Shown in pieces: positions 3 through 62,974 of a stretch of 64,000 nt of DNA. The translations under genes were made by a program, and so were the position numbers. The DNA lies in the NCBI GenBank assembly GCA_023230585.1, contig JALNXB010000005.1:6489-70488 (forward strand), read 5' to 3'. The notes below the pieces were generated by a model that made no database searches, was not told the DNA's origin, and saw only the letters and a list, made by a program, of their open reading frames with translations. This stretch comes from a bacterium (GTDB lineage: Bacteria > Ratteibacteria > UBA8468 > B48-G9 > JAFGKM01). Every line of letters begins with the position of its first letter. Position 1 is the stretch's first letter.

Positions 3-917
3 ATGATGAAAATGAAAATAAAAAAACTAAAAAAAGAGGTTCTACATTTATCTATCTTTATAAATTCTGTTATATTCTTCTATTTTTTGAAGGCAATGCC
101 AATATTTACCTACAAAACAATTAGTAGGTTTCTTGGAGTGTTATCTTTTGCTTTTATGGGCTCTACAAAAAAGAGAATCATAAATAATTTAAAGATATCT
201 TATGGTGACAAATTTAGTCTGGAAGAAAGAAAAGAGATTGGTAAGGATATATTTTCTAATATAGTTTTTTCTTTTTGTGAGTTGGTTGGAACAACAAAAC
301 TTAACACCCAACAAATTATAGATATGGCTGAAATAGAAGGCGAAGAAATACTAAAAAGCGCCTTAAAAACTGGTAAAGGTGTTGTTGGGGTATGCTCACA
401 TATGGGTAACTTTCCTTTACTTCAATATATCCTTGTAAAAAAAGGTTACCCTGCAAACGTTATAATTAAAGCTCCATCGGCGTCTCTTTTTGCTAAATTC
501 TGCGATAAACTTATAAGGGGAGCAGGGGTAACATATATTTCAAAACAAAACGCAAGAAAAACCATTACAGAAGCTCAAGATTGGATGGCAGCCAATAGAG
601 GTGTCCTCTCTTTTTACCTTGACCAGCACGCAAGCAACGGAACTCCTACTCAATTTTTTGGGAAGAAGGTCTTTGCTCCAAATGGGGCTGCTCTCTTTGC
701 AAAAAAATATAATTGCCTTGCTCTTGGGATTTTTTCTTATAGAATGAAAAGCGGTAAACATAAGATAATCATCGAAGGACCTTACCCATTGAAGGAGACC
801 AACAACATAAATGAAGACCTAATAGCAAACACCTCTTACTTTATGGAGAGAGTTGAGCATTATGTAAAAGCAGCTCCAGAACAATGGTTTTCGTGGCTCC
901 ACCGACGTTTTAGATAG
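3..917 (+). CDS. Lipid A biosynthesis (Kdo2-lipid IVA) acyltransferase family protein, LpxL/HtrB-like
   Basis: N-terminal TM helix followed by an acyltransferase domain with an H(X)4-type motif (CSHMGNFP) typical of the LpxL/LpxM lysophospholipid acyltransferase family; the 304-aa length fits. Confidence 0.55.
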   Translation: MMKMKIKKLKKEVLHLSIFINSVIFFYFLKAMPIFTYKTISRFLGVLSFAFMGSTKKRIINNLKISYGDKFSLEERKEIGKDIFSNIVFSFCELVGTTKLNTQQIIDMAEIEGEEILKSALKTGKGVVGVCSHMGNFPLLQYILVKKGYPANVIIKAPSASLFAKFCDKLIRGAGVTYISKQNARKTITEAQDWMAANRGVLSFYLDQHASNGTPTQFFGKKVFAPNGAALFAKKYNCLALGIFSYRMKSGKHKIIIEGPYPLKETNNINEDLIANTSYFMERVEHYVKAAPEQWFSWLHRRFR

Positions 918-1851: not shown

Positions 1852-2633
1852 TCAATACCCATCATTAAGGGTTCTTAATCTTCCATCACGGTTTGTCATA
1901 GATGTTGTGCTTCTGGTATTGTTAGGGACTGCCTCTTGAGGTATTTCTCTATATAGATGGCTGTCGCTACCACTGCGAGGCAAGGTAGATACCCATTTTG
2001 CGTGACCTCCAACATACAATATGTTTACGCCATCCCACCCATGGTTATGGTTTTTATGTGTGAAAAGATAACCGCTACCTGCTGGCTTTTCCCAGAATAC
2101 TTGAGAAAAATTGTAAGCCGCCTTAGTATCTGCCATAATAGCAGTGTCAGGGTGAGTCTGTATGTTTAACCCATAAGCATAAGCGTAAGAACAGGTCGGA
2201 GTTAAGTTAGATGCTACAGGGTCAGCAGCAGTGATGAGTTTACCAGGGATATTAACATCAGGTTTATGTGTAGTGCTTGGACATATAAATAGTTTGTAGT
2301 TTGTTACGTATGGTGTGGTGTGGTGTCAAGTTCAGGTGAATCGTTCCCTTCAGAGTCTTCAGGATATATCTGCCCGGTAAGTAGTGCAAGAGAAACATTT
2401 GTTACAGACCTGTCTACTTCGTGGTCGTGTGTAGGAAACCATCCATCCCAATCTTGAGCATAGATATATAAAACTACACCAAGCTGTTTAAGATTATTCA
2501 AGCAAGTAGCCCTGTTTGTCTTCTCTTTTGCTTTTGCCAACGCTGGAAGGAGCATTGCAGCAAGAATAGCTATAATAGCAATAACAACAAGTAGTTCGAT
2601 AAGAGTAAACCCGATATTTTTTTTATTTCTCAT
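1852..2633 (-). pseudogene. H-X9-DG/DUF1559 prepilin-like paralog disrupted by a frameshift (5-bp tandem duplication in a (TGGTG)3 tract at 2311-2326)
   Basis: ORF 2304..2633 encodes the prepilin N-terminus ([37 protein letters not shown]...ELDTTPHHT*). An offset frame from 2325 down to 1852 encodes the remainder ([12 protein letters not shown]...NHNHGWDGVNILYVGGH...), collinear with the intact paralog at 5428..6228. Deleting one ACACC unit (minus sense) gives a continuous ...[17 protein letters not shown]... Confidence 0.75.
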
Positions 2634-3587: not shown

Positions 3588-4631
3588 TTATTTTTTGGAG
3601 TCAAAAACTCTTAGGGCATTTTCAAAAAATATATCTTCTTTCAACTGCAAAGTTTCTTCTTTACTTAAACTGAGGGACTCTATATTATCTTTAATGGCTT
3701 TTATAACGTGGTAGGTATTATAGGTAAGCATACTCCTTTCTTGAGCAAATTGTGCCTGTATTGCAGGATCTGACCAGATATAGTCGTCCCGAGTAATAAA
3801 GGTCCATTCTTTATCAATCCCGGTAATCAACCCAAAAGGGAAATCCGACGCAAAAAGAAGTTTCTTTCTCATCATTTTATCTGCAAATGCTTTTGCGTAC
3901 ACACTATGTACTGCCGCACATGAAACATCGAAAAAAACTTGTTCAAGTTCAGAAATACCTGAATCCATAAACTTGAAAAATTGTTCAGGGTAAACATACC
4001 TACCCATATGAGCAAGTATAACTTTTATTTGTGGAAAGTTTTTGGTAAGATTTTTTATAAATTTTTGGTTGGTCTCTTCGCACATACCTTCACCAGATGT
4101 ATGTAGCATCAATACAAGTTTTTCTTTATTCATAAATTCCAACAAAGAAGTAGGTACAAACTCTTCAGTTCTTGTCTGGATATTGGGTTTACCCAAAAAA
4201 TCAAAGTACGGCTTTATACCGCTAAACAGAATACCCGAATCTTTCATATAATAAAACTGGTCAACAGTCTTATCTATGTTAAACGGGTCTGTAAGTAGAA
4301 ACCCATATATATTATTGTTAACTGCCAGAAGGTCCCCAACATATCGGTTTGCTGCATCTATATCTACTTCCATAAGAGGGAATCCGAAAGCACAAATATT
4401 CAAAATCTTTTTACCGTTATACAAGTTTTTATATGCAAACAAAAGTTCTTCGATAGTAAATGATGTAAAAAAGCACAAAGGTTTCTCTGCTCTCTCTGGA
4501 CTGATTTTTTTCATAATACCTACAGGGCCAATATGAGTATGAGCATCAAAAATCTTTTCAGGTACCCATTCCCGTAACTCATTTTCCCAAAGACCTATAT
4601 GGTCCTGATACCTACTTGTTTGTTTGTCCAT
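3588..4631 (-). CDS. Amidohydrolase-2 family metal-dependent hydrolase (TIM barrel)
   Basis: DAHTHIG near the N-terminus, ILAHMG and FASDFPF motifs; an Amidohydro_2/ACMSD-like signature. Confidence 0.55.
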   Translation of the reverse strand: MDKQTSRYQDHIGLWENELREWVPEKIFDAHTHIGPVGIMKKISPERAEKPLCFFTSFTIEELLFAYKNLYNGKKILNICAFGFPLMEVDIDAANRYVGDLLAVNNNIYGFLLTDPFNIDKTVDQFYYMKDSGILFSGIKPYFDFLGKPNIQTRTEEFVPTSLLEFMNKEKLVLMLHTSGEGMCEETNQKFIKNLTKNFPQIKVILAHMGRYVYPEQFFKFMDSGISELEQVFFDVSCAAVHSVYAKAFADKMMRKKLLFASDFPFGLITGIDKEWTFITRDDYIWSDPAIQAQFAQERSMLTYNTYHVIKAIKDNIESLSLSKEETLQLKEDIFFENALRVFDSKK

Positions 4632-4655
4632 TATGCCAAAGATTACAAAAAATCC

Positions 4656-5405
4656 TTAGTCTCCCCAGGAAAGTTTTTTTTGTGTTTGATCTTGCAAAAG
4701 TATCCACCAAAAGCGGTAATTAGCAACTTCCCCTGTGTGAGTCATAGTTGCTTCTTGGAATCTATTTTCTGTTGCGGTTTCCACATGTCCATCCATAAAA
4801 AGAAGGTTTATTAAACCGTTATGCCGAAAATGTGCAGTTCCATAAGCACTCGGCGCAGTCATAGTCCCTTGCTGTGTGTTCATACGTTGGCATAGATAAT
4901 AAGAACCACCAGGCAAAGAATTCGCCCAGCCACCAGGTATTGGTATTGTAAAAGAATCAGCAAAAATCCATAAATCACTTCTTTTATAGTCTATTGCAGA
5001 AGGACGAAACCATCCACTTGACGCATTAAAATAAGTATTAGTATTCCCACCATAAAGATAACCGCTTCTCCACCCATAATAACTGTCAGCCGGGCTTCTT
5101 GTATATTCATAAGGTTTTGCTGAAGGGCAACATATAACCTTTGGGTCTATATATCCTGTATAATTCCCGTATGTTTTGCCTTCTTTTGGGTGTCCAGTAT
5201 TTATACGAGTGTTAGCCCATCCATCCCAATCCTCTGCATACATAAGGATACCTAAACCGACCTGTTTTAAGTTGCTAACACAGGTTGCTGCTTTAGCTCT
5301 TGCCCTTGCTTTACTCAAAGCAGGTAACAACATCCCTGCCAAAATTGCTATTATAGCAATAACCACAAGCAACTCTATTAGAGTAAAACCTTTTTTTCTT
5401 TTCAT
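4656..5405 (-). CDS. Prepilin-type N-terminal cleavage/methylation domain protein, H-X9-DG (DUF1559) family
   Basis: [38 protein letters not shown] leader plus pilin N-terminus; C-terminal [12 protein letters not shown] (H-X9-DG). Confidence 0.8.
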
Positions 5406-5427: not shown

Positions 5428-6228
5428 TTAATCCCACCATTTAGGAGAAGGCATCATCAAACGTGTTGGGCTATTATCCACTAAACTTTCGCCTTGATAA
5501 GGAGAAAAATAAAATTGTGATCTGTTGATAGCTAACCATTGGGCTATTCCAGGATTTCTTTTTGGTAAAGCGGCAGTAGATATTGTTGTGGCTCTACCAT
5601 CAACATAAAGAACATTTAACCCATCACAACCGTGGTTCTCATTCCTCTCGTACAGACGCCAGCCATACCCAGAACCAAAATCTGCTGCTGGTGCATCCAC
5701 CATAATAACAGTTTCTGGGTGTGTTTGCACGCTTAGACCAGCTGCATACATATAGGTTAGTGAGCACCCCTCTGGGGTTTTGTCTGCACTTAAACGAGTC
5801 GAAACATCCCTATATAGAGCGCCTTTAGGGTTTGTTGATGGTTTCCACCCGCTCTTATTTCCTGGGCAGATAAAGAGCCGATAATCTGATACATATTTTG
5901 GGGTTTCAAGAGATGGTTCTTCGGGGTTAGGCATACCTACAAGAAGTCCAAGAGAACAGTTGGTTTTTGATGAAAAATGTCCATAACCTGATGCAGAAGC
6001 CCAGTATGTATCATCAAAATTATAGTAAGGGAACCAGCCGCCCCAATCTTGAGCGTACATATTTAAAGCAAGACCTAATTGCCTCAAGTTATTCATACAA
6101 GCTGTCATCCGTGCTCTTGCCCTTGCTCTGTCGAGGGCTGGTAACAACATAGAAGCTAAAATCCCTATAATAGCAATAACAACAAGCAATTCTATAAGAG
6201 TAAACCCTCTTTTTTGTTTTTCTCTCAT
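5428..6228 (-). CDS. Prepilin-type N-terminal cleavage/methylation domain protein, H-X9-DG-like (DUF1559) family
   Basis: [40 protein letters not shown]; C-terminal [16 protein letters not shown]. Confidence 0.8.
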
Positions 6229-6444
6229 ACTTATATCACCTCCTTATTTTTTTCAATAAACCTGCCTGTATAATCTCTGTTGGTATTACTCAAACAGAGT
6301 TATATTTAATATATTAGTACAGATGCACAGAGGTCAAAAAAAGTAGAGACTCACTCAAATTTTTAAACTTAACTCTAATTCTATTCTACCTTTTTACATT
6401 AAATTTTGTCAAGTTTTAGGTATAGGAAGGTGAATACCACCGTT

Positions 6445-7137
6445 TTATTTTTTTATTTTACGTATCGGCGGAAAAAGTATTGAAGCAAGCATTATAAAAA
6501 ATCTTTTGGTATCAGTAAGGGGTCTTATTTTACTTTTTTCATCATCATAAATGGTTGAAATTAATACCGAAGATATCCCAAAACCTTTCCAGGAAGCTTT
6601 TATAAGAATCTCTGATTCTGTCTCAAAATGTGAGGTGTTAAGTTTTATTGAAGATAGAACCTCTTTTTTTATCAACCTAAACCCGCTCTGAGTGTCTGGT
6701 ATCCATTGGCAAGCAACCCCAGAGATTAAAACAGACATACTTATATTTGTTAACCGTCTTATAAGAGGCATTTTTGTGCCTTTAATTTTTCGTTTCCCTA
6801 CCCATATACTTGCCCTTTGATTTCTTTTGTATGCCCTTAAAAATCCCGGTATATCTTCAATTGGGTGTTGACCATCTCCATCAAGGGTAATAACTGCAGG
6901 TATACCTTTTTCAAGAATATATCTAAACCCTGTTTTTAAAGCCTCACCTTTACCTTTGCATACAGGATGACTCAACACTAACGCCCCACCCTCTTTTGCA
7001 TAAATATTTGTATTATCTGTTGACCCATCATCTACAACTATAACATTTGAATATTCTTTCTTAAGTTTTGATACCAACGCCCCAATATTCTTCTCTTCGT
7101 TATGTGCTGGTATAAGAATACCTATCTTATCCTTCAT
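6445..7137 (-). CDS. Family 2 glycosyltransferase (dolichyl-phosphate mannosyltransferase-like)
   Basis: ILIPAHNEEKNI...VVDDGSTDNT...TLDGDGQHP, a GT2 DxD-type signature; overlaps the recG end by 11 nt. Confidence 0.8.
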   Translation of the reverse strand: MKDKIGILIPAHNEEKNIGALVSKLKKEYSNVIVVDDGSTDNTNIYAKEGGALVLSHPVCKGKGEALKTGFRYILEKGIPAVITLDGDGQHPIEDIPGFLRAYKRNQRASIWVGKRKIKGTKMPLIRRLTNISMSVLISGVACQWIPDTQSGFRLIKKEVLSSIKLNTSHFETESEILIKASWKGFGISSVLISTIYDDEKSKIRPLTDTKRFFIMLASILFPPIRKIKK

Positions 7138-10734: not shown

Positions 10735-10965
10735 CCGAAGGTCAGACCTTCGTTTTCTCTTAGTTGCAAGCCTCTGCAAAGACAACTCCCCCTCCACCTA
10801 TGCCAAGGCATACCTGCCGAAGCTTGTATTTTAGAGTAGGTTGGCTTCGGTGGATAAACCTCGCAAGACAAAATACAAAAGACGGAATGGGGCAAAGACG
10901 TAAAGACCCCCTCACCCTTAATCCCTCTCCCCCAAGGGTAGAGGGCAAAAATGGGGAGTGAGTAG
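10735..10965. repeat. GC-rich composite intergenic repeat element, copy A (modules M5 palindrome, M1, M2, M3)
   Basis: Shares 35-50 nt near-identical modules with 25400-25677, 50590-50793 and 62560-62930. Examples: ccaagg.atacctgccgaagcttgtattttag.gtaggttgg; ctcgcaagac.aa.tacaaaagacggaatgggg; ccctcaccctt.atccctctccc.caaggg.aga.ggcaaaaa. Also contains the palindrome cgaaggtcagaccttcg at 10736-10752. Confidence 0.8.
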
Positions 10966-10988
10966 ACACCTCTTACTTTTTTATCACT

Positions 10989-25228: not shown

Positions 25229-25399
25229 ATAACCTCCTTTTTAACAGTTTCGTTCTACTAAATTTGACTAAGCGATATCTTTTGTCTTTTCTTCGTTAAA
25301 AAAATATGTGTCTATGAACGCCCAAATTTGTTGTCCTGAACTTGTTTCAGGATCTCTCACTTAACCCACACAGTTTGTCATTGCTAAGGCATGTCTGCC

Positions 25400-25677
25400 T
25401 AAGCCAACCTACGCTAACCTACAAGCTTCGGCAGGTATACCTTGACGCAGGTTGAAACGCTTTATGTGACTGGGCAGTCTCTCTTTTATCTTATACACTA
25501 TTGTTTATTCCCATTCCTTTTTCGCCTTCGGCGGGATTGCCACGCCAAAAAACGCCCTCCTACGCCAAGGCTTTGGTGGATAAAGCTCGCAAGACAAACT
25601 ACAAAAGACGGAATGGGGGAAAACTAACAGCCCATCCCCATACGCTACACTTGACTAAGACGAAGGTCTGACCTTCG
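25400..25677. repeat. GC-rich composite intergenic repeat element, copy B (inverted M1, M4, M2, M5 palindrome)
   Basis: 25404-25441 is the reverse complement of module M1 (ccaacctacgctaacctacaagcttcggcaggtatacc); 25487-25545 matches 62628-62687 (tatc.tatacactattgt...cattcctttt.cgcct.cggcg.gattgccacg); 25586-25619 is module M2; palindrome cgaaggtctgaccttcg at 25660-25676. Confidence 0.8.
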
Positions 25678-25688
25678 TATTCAGTTAA

Positions 25689-32593: not shown

Positions 32594-33367
32594 TTACACC
32601 TCCGTGCTAAATTCAATAACAATATCTAAATATGGTTGTTTTATATCAGAAGGAAAGTTGGGTATGTTTTTTGTTGATTTGACAGCTTCAACAACAGAGA
32701 TATCAAACCCTCTATTTCCTGAACTTAACTCAAGAGAAACACTTTCTATCACGCCACTTTTGTAAACCCTAAAAGAAACGGTAGTCTTCCTGATACCCAG
32801 AACATTGGGCACCTTCCAATTCTCTTTTATCTTACTTTTTAAAAGCATAACATACCAGTCTGGAATAGCATCTCGTTGTCTTACAACTGACATCTCTAAA
32901 GAAGTACCTTGTAGTTTTTCAATCTGTACAGATTTTCCTTTATAGACTTCCTTTTCTGTTTTAACTGGTCTACTTTCTATTTTAGCAATTAGTTTTTCTT
33001 TGAAACTTTCGCTTGAAAAAGAAGAAACTTCTTTCTTTTCTGTGCTTATAGAAGTTTTTTTAGATTTTTGTTCTTCAGAAGTTTTTTTGGATTTTGGTCC
33101 TTCTTTGGCTCTGGAAGGTTCAGGAACAATCTTTTTTTTCTGAATCTCTTCTTTTGTTTCGACCACTTGACTGGTCTCTGATAATATTTTTGATATAGGG
33201 ATATTTATTAACTGAATATCTATCACTTGATGAGAAATTATATTATTTTTTTTCCACGGTGAACCAACAAGGATAAAAAGCCCAAAACAATGGATTAGAA
33301 AAGTTATACCTAAACTCTTCTTTTTTATTCTATCTGTGTAGCCAGTCCAATCTTCTCTATTTTGCAT
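32594..33367 (-). CDS. tolA: TolA-like protein (TM anchor, Lys/Glu-rich linker, TonB/TolA C-terminal domain)
   Basis: N-terminal TM helix ITFLIHCFGLFILVG, a K/E/S-rich central region and a TonB_C-like C-terminus; its position between tolR and tolB. Confidence 0.6.
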   Translation of the reverse strand: MQNREDWTGYTDRIKKKSLGITFLIHCFGLFILVGSPWKKNNIISHQVIDIQLINIPISKILSETSQVVETKEEIQKKKIVPEPSRAKEGPKSKKTSEEQKSKKTSISTEKKEVSSFSSESFKEKLIAKIESRPVKTEKEVYKGKSVQIEKLQGTSLEMSVVRQRDAIPDWYVMLLKSKIKENWKVPNVLGIRKTTVSFRVYKSGVIESVSLELSSGNRGFDISVVEAVKSTKNIPNFPSDIKQPYLDIVIEFSTEV

Positions 33368-50589: not shown

Positions 50590-50793
50590 TGTTTTTATCT
50601 GCCAAACTTGGCTATGCTTTAAGCGTTAATTACGCAGGAAAGCCTTATGTGCCTGCGGCAATCCTCGTTTTCCCTTAACCTGCATACAGCCCCTCCTCCT
50701 ACGCTAAAATACAAGCCTCATCCCATTAACCACTCTGCAAACCCCTGAGGACATACTATCCCAAGCACCTCCAAGGGGTAGAAGGCAAAAAAG
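50590..50793. repeat. GC-rich composite intergenic repeat element, copy C (degenerate: inverted M1 fragment plus M3 fragment)
   Basis: cctcctacgctaaaatacaagc at 50695-50716 is the reverse complement of the M1 3' half as seen at 62726-62745; cacctccaaggggtagaaggcaaaaaag at 50767-50794 matches M3. Confidence 0.65.
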
Positions 50794-62559: not shown

Positions 62560-62930
62560 CTTGTCTTACGAGGAGCGTCTTAGCCCGAATGCTTTCTGAG
62601 GGATTGCGACGTGGTAATCCTCGTCTTTATCCTATACACTATTGTCCCCACCCTCATTCCTTTTCCGCCTACGGCGAGATTGCCACGTTACGAAGCCCCT
62701 CCTACGCCAAGGTATACCTGCCGAAGCTTGTATTTTAGCGTAGGTTGGCTACGGCGGGTAAAACTCGCAAGACTAACTACAAAAGACGGAATGGGGGTAA
62801 CGTAAAAAAACAAAAGCATAAAGCCCCCTCACCCTTGATCCCTCTCCCTCAAGGGGAGAAGGCAAAAAAAAGGGAAGGTGTATGCGCCGTAGTCCCAGAG
62901 TGAGTAAATAACACCCCATACGCCTTTCTT
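62560..62930. repeat. GC-rich composite intergenic repeat element, copy D (most complete: M4, M1, M2, M3 plus flanking inverted repeats)
   Basis: 62628-62687 is M4; 62701-62748 is M1 (with a cctacgc...gcgtagg stem); 62764-62797 is M2; 62824-62871 is M3. Internal inverted repeat acgagga(62570)...tcctcgt(62618); ctacggcg appears at 62669 and 62749 and as cgccgtag at 62886. Confidence 0.8.
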
Positions 62931-62974
62931 TTATGTTTTTATCCTTGCCTTTGTTTTTTCTTCCAGTAAAATAC

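Follow-up and report, generated by a model that had tools for sequence, protein, structure and literature searches.

The four GC-rich islands (A to D) that lie between genes in the 64,000-nucleotide stretch of DNA analysed here (the window) raise the question of what kind of element they are. From the letters of the window alone, they had been described as mosaic elements of the BIME/REP type or MITE-like elements, rather than simple duplications, and this description has held up through the finding of dozens of copies, hairpin modules, CGTC-tagged REP dimers and turnover by recombination. What the description did not foresee is how large the family is, how its polarity relates to gene direction, and its connection with dRS3/NTS-type REPs. 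The islands are likely members of a family of palindromic mosaic repeats that is specific to the lineage, non-coding and present in high copy number, and that belongs to the REP/BIME/NIME kind; its units would be non-autonomous, with recombination at hairpins reshuffling them. What is new is the lineage-specific mosaic family, the REP/BIME/NIME kind being already known, and two of its features are notable, namely a uniform array polarity tied to the direction of the neighbouring genes and the presence of dRS3/NTS-type REP dimers in a candidate-phylum host.

Four islands between genes

When each island was compared with the window by blastn, all four islands and the modules common to them were recovered, at 85–95% identity and with E-values down to 2e-29. 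Islands A and D align over 96 nt at 90.6% identity (E 2e-29), and their copies of module M3 over 45 nt at 91%. M2 is common to A, B and D (85–94% over 54 nt, with individual matches of 50 nt at 94% and 39 nt at 95%), and M4 is common to B and D (33 nt at 91% and 20 nt at 95%). The same comparison agrees with the claim that M1 is inverted in B and C relative to A and D: in B the inverted copy lies at 25401–25444 (44 nt, 91–95% identical to A and D), and C holds an inverted 19-nt fragment (50698–50716). M2 and M3 had been said to keep a single orientation, which is true inside the window but fails in the wider family, where M3 and a g-h-e block are also flipped. Island C is the weakest and most decayed copy, with only the M1 fragment, a 13–16 nt tail of M3 and module s.

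The islands are as GC-rich as had been noted, with 48.6% in A, 44.6% in B, 47.1% in C and 48.5% in D against 34.9% for the window. Each of them also fills, as described, the entire gap between co-directional minus-strand genes. The gap of island A runs from the start of the glycerophosphodiesterase (GDPD) gene (10722) to the stop of a 759-aa ORF (10989), that of B from the start of the ORF for a 1385-aa beta-helix protein (25228) to the stop of an 869-aa ORF (25689), and that of D from the start of purD (62507) to the stop of a CPBP protease-like gene (62975). Together with an AP_endonuc_2/epimerase-like gene at island C, the adjoining GDPD, beta-helix and purD genes are all ordinary and mutually unrelated. 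The islands had been located correctly but drawn too tightly, as B starts at about 25280 rather than 25400, A ends at about 10983 and D at about 62951 (Table 1). A scan with the repeat-bearing gaps as queries found no fifth island in the 64-kb window.

Other repetition in the window is unrelated to the islands. A 27-nt unit is present in two tandem copies (88% match) at 33050–33103, in the region of a minus-strand ORF (32594–33367). A minus-strand cluster of paralogues (964–1812, 2304–2633, 4656–5405 and 5428–6228) encodes type IV pilin-like proteins with an N-terminal methylation motif and DUF1559, and gives rise to D1 and D2, two families of direct repeats in the repeat scan.

Table 1. Coordinates and module content of the islands, in window positions
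Feature	Position	Strand	Description
Island A	10735..10983	.	array r - J' - M1 - M2 - M3 - e-tail
Module r, island A	10736..10752	.	7-bp palindromic hairpin CGAAGGT-CAG-ACCTTCG, 13 nt upstream of start codon
J' + M1 + M2, island A	10789..10892	+	J' = CCCCTCCACCTATGCCAAGG; M1 10809-10844; M2 10845-10892
M3, island A	10908..10949	+	CCCTCT...AGAGGG hairpin
Island B	25280..25680	.	i - p - inverted J/M1 unit - b - M4 - J - M2 - r
Module p, island B	25334..25352	+	REP-like hairpin TCCTGAA-CTTGT-TTCAGGA then TCTC
Inverted J/M1 hairpin unit, island B	25397..25451	-	stem CCTACGC/GCGTAGG, M1 interior flipped
Closed unit U1 without M1, island B	25509..25620	+	M4 25512-25544, J 25554-25570, M2 25571-25618
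Module r, second copy, island B	25661..25677	.	CGAAGGT-CTG-ACCTTCG
Island C	50590..50793	.	decayed array between sugar-phosphate epimerase-like gene and serS
Island C modules			a-like GGCAATCCTCG 50657-50667; J + flipped M1 fragment 50690-50716; s 50717-50742; M3 3' half 50771-50793
Island D	62560..62951	.	most complete array: a - b - M4 - J - M1 - M2 - M3 - e - f
Closed unit U1 with M1, island D	62652..62799	+	M4 62655-62687, J 62696-62712, M1 62713-62748, M2 62749-62796
Island D modules			a 62603-62632; M3 62825-62866; e 62874-62912; f 62925-62951

The wider family and its host

The proposal of a multi-copy repeat family is strengthened beyond the window, where dozens of copies were found that are built from recurrent modules and belong to no known RNA family. 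A metagenome scan for the core of M2 returned 19 loci (L008–L026; 191 kb, 33–39% GC), none of which overlaps the window. With the repeat-bearing gaps as queries, these loci were found to hold about 70 islands, or roughly one per 3 kb, made up of about 20 recurrent hairpin modules; overall, the density of islands ranges from about one per 3 kb to one per 16 kb. The islands had been described as intergenic and non-coding, and in a census of 210 matches to modules of defined polarity, none lies inside an ORF of at least 100 aa. The genes that adjoin islands in the sampled loci are ordinary metabolic genes. When a 19-mer, TACAAAAGACGGAATGGGG, was searched for in a collection of genome contigs, only five chance matches were obtained, all inside coding sequence.

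The ENA contig L036 overlaps the start of the window and thus comes from the same genome, and it adds two more islands, which include p, q and the closed unit U1 described below. The nearer one (L036:5778–6453) is 676 nt long, ends 36 nt before window position 1 and consists of 14 modules that all run antisense to the acyltransferase gene (window positions 3–917). The other (L036:11774–12116), about 6 kb further out, holds p, two copies of q and a short U1. Short-read contigs of the same organism (L001, L002, L027, L028, L036 and L037; ENA ERZ27247376 and Logan SRR6484323) end inside or at the edge of islands, for instance within M3 of island D, and other assemblies of the window organism are likewise interrupted within islands A, C and D, as happens to assemblies at multi-copy repeats.

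The nearest relatives of the purD product are 55–61% identical and are named Candidatus Omnitrophica or Ratteibacteria. DUF1559/N-methyl pilin-like paralogues, such as those in the window, are typical of the PVC group. Taken together, these place the host as an uncultured AT-rich bacterium in the neighbourhood of Omnitrophica and Ratteibacteria.

Module order and the closed unit U1

A library of about 20 modules was assembled from a k-mer map and by hand, including M1–M4, a, b, J, g, h, h2, e, f, k, r, s and the hairpins p and q. The modules are 20–190 nt long and form arrays of up to about 680 nt, in which they follow one another in a set, recurrent order; L036, for example, has p q J M1 s f k a M4 g h h2 e. 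One closed unit, U1 (M4-J-[M1]-M2), has M4 at one end and M2 at the other, with terminal inverted repeats of 9–12 bp: the opening part of M4 (CCCATTCC) pairs with the closing part of M2 (GGAATGGG), and M1 is the tip of the rod between them. For the U1 copy with M1 in island D, a long imperfect rod closed by CCTCATTCC and GGAATGGGG is predicted. The unit is found as a 152-nt form with M1, as a form of 116–117 nt without M1 and in short forms of 66–86 nt.

Three kinds of change relate the variants: M1 has flipped, DNA between short direct repeats has been deleted, and whole composites have been duplicated in tandem. What appeared as an inversion of M1 is the stretch flanked by the inverted repeats CCTACGC/GCGTAGG in flipped orientation, and in L023, and partly in island C, the DNA between two direct GCTTCGG repeats was then lost from the flipped form. 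In L021, tandem composite units with a period of 299/342 and 97–98% identity were detected by the repeat search; the array was missed by TRF, and its units differ by a 43-nt indel. The same locus is represented from another metagenome by L017, in which two composite units of about 300–340 nt are followed by unique DNA, against at least 2.5 units up to the end of the contig in L021. This difference may be either copy-number variation or an effect of assembly. In L020, two tandem paralogous oxidoreductase-like genes (4050–4958 and 5604–6512; 78% identical) have a 645-nt repeat island between them, which raises the possibility that islands bring about local gene duplications or mark them.

Array polarity and gene direction

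The polarity of the modules is nearly always uniform within one island, and in 36 of the 40 islands with an unambiguous flanking gene direction it is antisense to the flanking genes (binomial p = 1.9e-7). The polarity switches with the local direction of the genes inside single loci; L025 flips three times, and the two halves of the island in a divergent gap of L022 each run antisense to the gene that lies nearer to them. Exceptions to the rule include the array at L011:12639–12980, a rare sense array just downstream of an RNase P RNA gene. Another array (L019:10963–11036) adjoins a tRNA gene. The placement of the islands in the 5' leader of the downstream gene is a positional statement only, as arrays also lie 3' of genes in convergent gaps and beside the RNase P RNA and tRNA genes.

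Several causes of the polarity were considered and set aside. A replication-linked orientation, as in IS200/IS605, is ruled out by the flips with gene direction inside single loci of 14 kb. Avoidance of terminators in the sense direction is also ruled out, terminator-like sites being commoner on the gene-sense strand (20 against 9); 14 of these 20 are a q hairpin followed by CTCGTTTTT. A C-rich strand for Rho loading is unsupported, with the GC skew of the islands ranging from -0.11 to -0.29 and mostly near the window average of -0.11.

We know of no report of a strong polarity relative to transcription as a property of REP, BIME or NIME elements. The polarity of the arrays counts against a reading of the islands as elements of this kind, and it fits a role at the level of RNA equally well. 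Its simplest cause would be selection on the read-through transcript, because the arrays sit in tight co-directional gene clusters. More tentatively, and in our view doubtfully, the antisense polarity could be functional rather than a by-product, with a recruited REP/NIME-like family marking transcription units as a genome-wide layer of punctuation that is read on one strand. The arrays might then work at the level of the transcript, serving between genes as cassettes for processing, stabilisation or termination, or at the level of DNA, where the displaced non-template strand might offer sites for a strand-specific, single-strand nuclease or recombinase of the Ssn type.

Structure in DNA or RNA

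The alternative that survives best is that the elements act as RNA, either as structured cis-acting segments of mRNA (5' leaders, intercistronic spacers and 3' UTRs) that control processing, stability or termination, or as small RNAs antisense to genes. The polarity described above speaks for it, as do the gene-sense q hairpins with their following CTCGTTTTT (14 copies), and the islands lie in tight co-directional clusters with no convincing terminator ahead, so that they are probably transcribed. Copies of U1 with M1 also fold better than shuffled sequences (z -2.8 to -4.9), although those without M1 barely do so (z +0.4 to -2.75).

The comparison of copies points the other way. The stems of the modules are maintained with some compensatory variants, such as ATTTCGGA..TCCGAAAT and CCTTCT..AGAAGG. 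In an RNAalifold analysis of 14 U1 copies, none of the 23 pairs had a compensatory change and the covariation term was +0.14; the unpaired columns of the alignment are as invariant as the paired ones. Mismatches in stems are balanced between G-T (35) and A-C (30). Folding is also no better on one strand than on the other, with a mean z of -2.07 for the M2 strand and -1.90 for the gene-sense strand (Wilcoxon p = 0.46), and U1 of island D has a z of -2.8 on the gene-sense strand, -4.75 on the plus strand and -3.25 as DNA. The lack of covariation, the balance of G-T and A-C mismatches and the equal z on both strands rule out an RNA structure confined to one strand; the hairpin potential is thus symmetric and belongs to the DNA itself. 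In appearance the copies are repeats that were propagated or homogenised recently rather than a conserved RNA.

Nor do the islands fall into any known RNA family. The original prediction had called for a check against Rfam, and at gathering score Rfam 15 found only tRNAs and RNase P RNA in the window and 132 kb of the loci, none of them in islands, while an E-value scan of island D returned only noise. Scans of islands A, B and D for sigma-70 promoters and terminators gave results at the level of shuffled sequences, and a shared promoter-like CCAAATTTGG motif near gene starts was rejected as not enriched in the window (4 found, 3.8 expected). The downstream genes (purD, GDPD, beta-helix protein and epimerase) are unrelated, and module content differs between strains at one site. 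Lacking both covariation and strand asymmetry, the structured regulatory or small RNA once offered as an alternative is now unlikely.

The hairpins p and q

In contrast to the window modules M1–M4, which have no REP tag and to that extent count against a REP reading, the hairpins p and q resemble a published class. REPs of the CGTC class have a CGTC or TGTC (or CCTC) tag, a stem of 8–9 bp starting A-T, a loop of 4–5 nt and a short tail that is mostly CCA, and they mostly form head-to-head dimers 20–100 bp apart with a conserved spacer (PMC3733652). Module q reads TGTC-ATTCCGGA-CTTGA-TCCGGAAT-CTC and p reads GTC-ATCCTGAA-CTTGT-TTCAGGAT-CTC, so that both have an 8-bp stem beginning with AT and a 5-nt loop. 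The tag is present in 27 of the 32 copies of q (TGTC in 26, CGTC in one); in p, TGTC is found in only 5 of the 19 copies and TGTT in 7. The tail is CTC in 29 of 32 copies of q and 18 of 19 copies of p, and shares only its first C with CCA. In 16 of the 19 copies of p, q follows at a distance of 37–46 nt with the tags outside, which makes the pair a head-to-head heterodimer, and the spacer between them is conserved (CTCTAAC.TAACCCACG..GTAG..AAAAACGAG). Judged by these sequences, p and q fit the published definition of CGTC-tagged REPs except in the tail.

Identical copies of both hairpins are also found in viral contigs, and thus in widely different hosts or phages. The q 25-mer GATTCCGGATCAAGTCCGGAATGAC occurs verbatim in 7 viral contigs and the p 24-mer ATCCTGAACTTGTTTCAGGATCTC in 10 (IMG/VR; L029–L035 and L038–L047), these contigs having GC contents of 35–63%, while the related host copies are those of L008–L026 and L036. 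The viral copies carry the CCA tail, and often lie beside NTS-like variants (such as GTCATTCCCGCGGAGGGGGGAATCCA) and variants with compensatory stem changes (GTCATGCCGGACTTGATCCGGCATCCA and GTCATTCCGGGCTTGACCCGGAATCCA). The patterns of M1, M2 and M4 had no match in viral contigs. The REP-type modules therefore belong to a class that crosses phyla, and M1–M4 are lineage-specific.

The Neisseria repeat dRS3 belongs to the CGTC REP class. It has a longer form, NTS, and SsnA, a GIY-YIG nuclease of 94 aa, cuts NTS when it is single-stranded (PMC11893778). By analogy, a small GIY-YIG nuclease specific for single-stranded DNA could cleave at the REP-like hairpins and so limit or direct how such DNA, whether incoming or exposed, recombines, with the remaining modules as passengers, as in NIMEs. 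Consistent with this, q and canonical copies of p have GTC before the AT-starting palindrome and C right after it, the positions critical for SsnA cleavage and binding (PMC11893778), and the verbatim viral copies, 17 contigs in all, lie beside NTS-like variants. The Ssn system consists of a cd10448 GIY-YIG gene (~94 aa) that is typically flanked by the SRM motif, and hundreds of SRM copies usually accompany an ssnA gene (PMC11893778). Against it, the SRM motif HGTCWYN(0-2)YYVSBRHN(0-5)WNVSBRGN(0-2)RNCYNB matches neither the window nor the 191 kb of loci (0 in each; shuffle means 0.07 and 0.23), and no GIY-YIG gene was matched in about 270 kb of host sequence, either by tblastn with GIY-YIG queries or by a motif regex. 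The four window islands hold one degenerate p, in island B, which is without the GTCAT head and has lost its q partner, and no q. We consider this reading distinctly improbable. Because SsnA has 94 aa, a minus-strand ORF of 94 aa at window positions 1852–2136, which is also a gene call in the ENA and Logan contigs, was examined; it has no Pfam match and no GIY-YIG signature.

Turnover and mobility

The turnover of the islands can be followed at one comparable site, in two loci from different metagenomes (L020 and L023) whose flanking proteins are 97–99% identical. The same intergenic site holds a 66-nt short U1 in L020 and a 260-nt composite in L023. Both versions start with CCCCATTCCGTCTTT and both end before TAAACAATAATAAGG, so that the difference is an internal replacement and not that of a filled and an empty site. 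Replacement between shared borders is what recombination or gene conversion among copies would give. No target-site duplication was found around U1 copies or at this site, and exact-protein look-ups of the genes beside islands A, C and D revealed no empty site, returning only contigs of the same strain that are broken inside the islands, which leaves transposition as such only putative. In the roughly 270 kb of host sequence there is no transposase, RAYT or multi-copy transposase-like ORF; with no GIY-YIG gene there either, mobilisation in trans is something that we only infer.

The view that the islands are classical MITEs, that is, deletion derivatives of an IS that are cut and pasted by its transposase via terminal inverted repeats, is very unlikely, since inverted repeats of 9–12 bp, (T)CCCCATTCC ... 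GGAATGGGG(A), do bound U1 (66–152 nt) and ACTCTGAG/CTCAGAGT bound an h-h2 unit, but no target-site duplication surrounds U1 copies, no parent IS or transposase was found in the ~270 kb, the units occur almost only in ordered arrays of one polarity rather than as dispersed single insertions, and the L020/L023 variant is an internal replacement with shared borders.

Under the favoured reading, that of mosaic repeats of the REP/BIME/NIME kind, the modules would be non-autonomous. They would spread and be reshuffled at the DNA level, through template switches or recombination events at hairpins and through gene conversion among copies in different places. Members of the REP type would probably be nicked or mobilised by a single-strand-specific enzyme acting in trans, with its gene in another part of the genome, such as a GIY-YIG nuclease of the Ssn type or an enzyme of the RAYT or IS110 type.

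Implications

With this family, a densely repeat-laden genome of an uncultured PVC-related lineage joins the short list of bacteria with mosaic REP arrays, and dRS3/NTS-type (CGTC/TGTC-tagged) REP dimers are now placed in this lineage. The identical 24–25-nt hairpins in viral contigs of very different GC content bear on how such hairpins, and their presumed Ssn-type partners, spread. What selects for or against such repeats might be learned from the strong tie between polarity and gene direction, a clue that can be tested. In practical terms, the islands account for broken contigs in the metagenome-assembled genomes of this group and might be used to tell strains apart.

Comparison with known systems

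The BIMEs of E. coli and the REPINs mobilised by RAYT are, like the islands, mosaics of palindromic units and linker motifs that are extragenic, present in high copy number and probably transcribed with their neighbours. They differ in their GTAG-headed palindromes, which are absent from the modules, in their alternating orientation, where the modules share one polarity, and in the RAYT Y1 transposase gene with flanking REPs, for which no counterpart was found in the ~270 kb; there are also many more module types here, about 20. The BOX elements of pneumococci (boxA-boxB-boxC) and the SNRs of Deinococcus are composites of a few modules in fixed order, variable in presence or number and with predicted stable hairpins, as are the islands. 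To our knowledge the islands have no sequence relation to either of them, and the host lineage differs. The island arrays are also longer (up to about 680 nt) and more varied.

The likeness to the REPIN-like CGTC REP dimers (Di Nocera et al., 2013) is limited to modules p and q. The NIMEs of Neisseria, with dRS3/NTS, differ from the islands in several respects. The stems here are ATTCCGGA and ATCCTGAA rather than ATTCCCGC, and the tail is CTC rather than CCA/CYRG; the arrays have one polarity that is tied to the neighbouring gene; no ssnA was found in the ~270 kb and the SRM motif is unmatched; and the host is an AT-rich, uncultured bacterium resembling Omnitrophica or Ratteibacteria. The combination of intergenic units with dRS3-type palindromes that marks NIMEs is nevertheless present in the wider family, island B alone having p within the window. 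In both cases, intergenic arrays are formed of CGTC-class palindromes of 20–30 nt interleaved with repeat units of 50–150 nt, and, as here, the arrays of Neisseria hardly ever lie within genes, gather near ordinary genes and are credited with promoting recombination (PMC11893778; PMC3733652).
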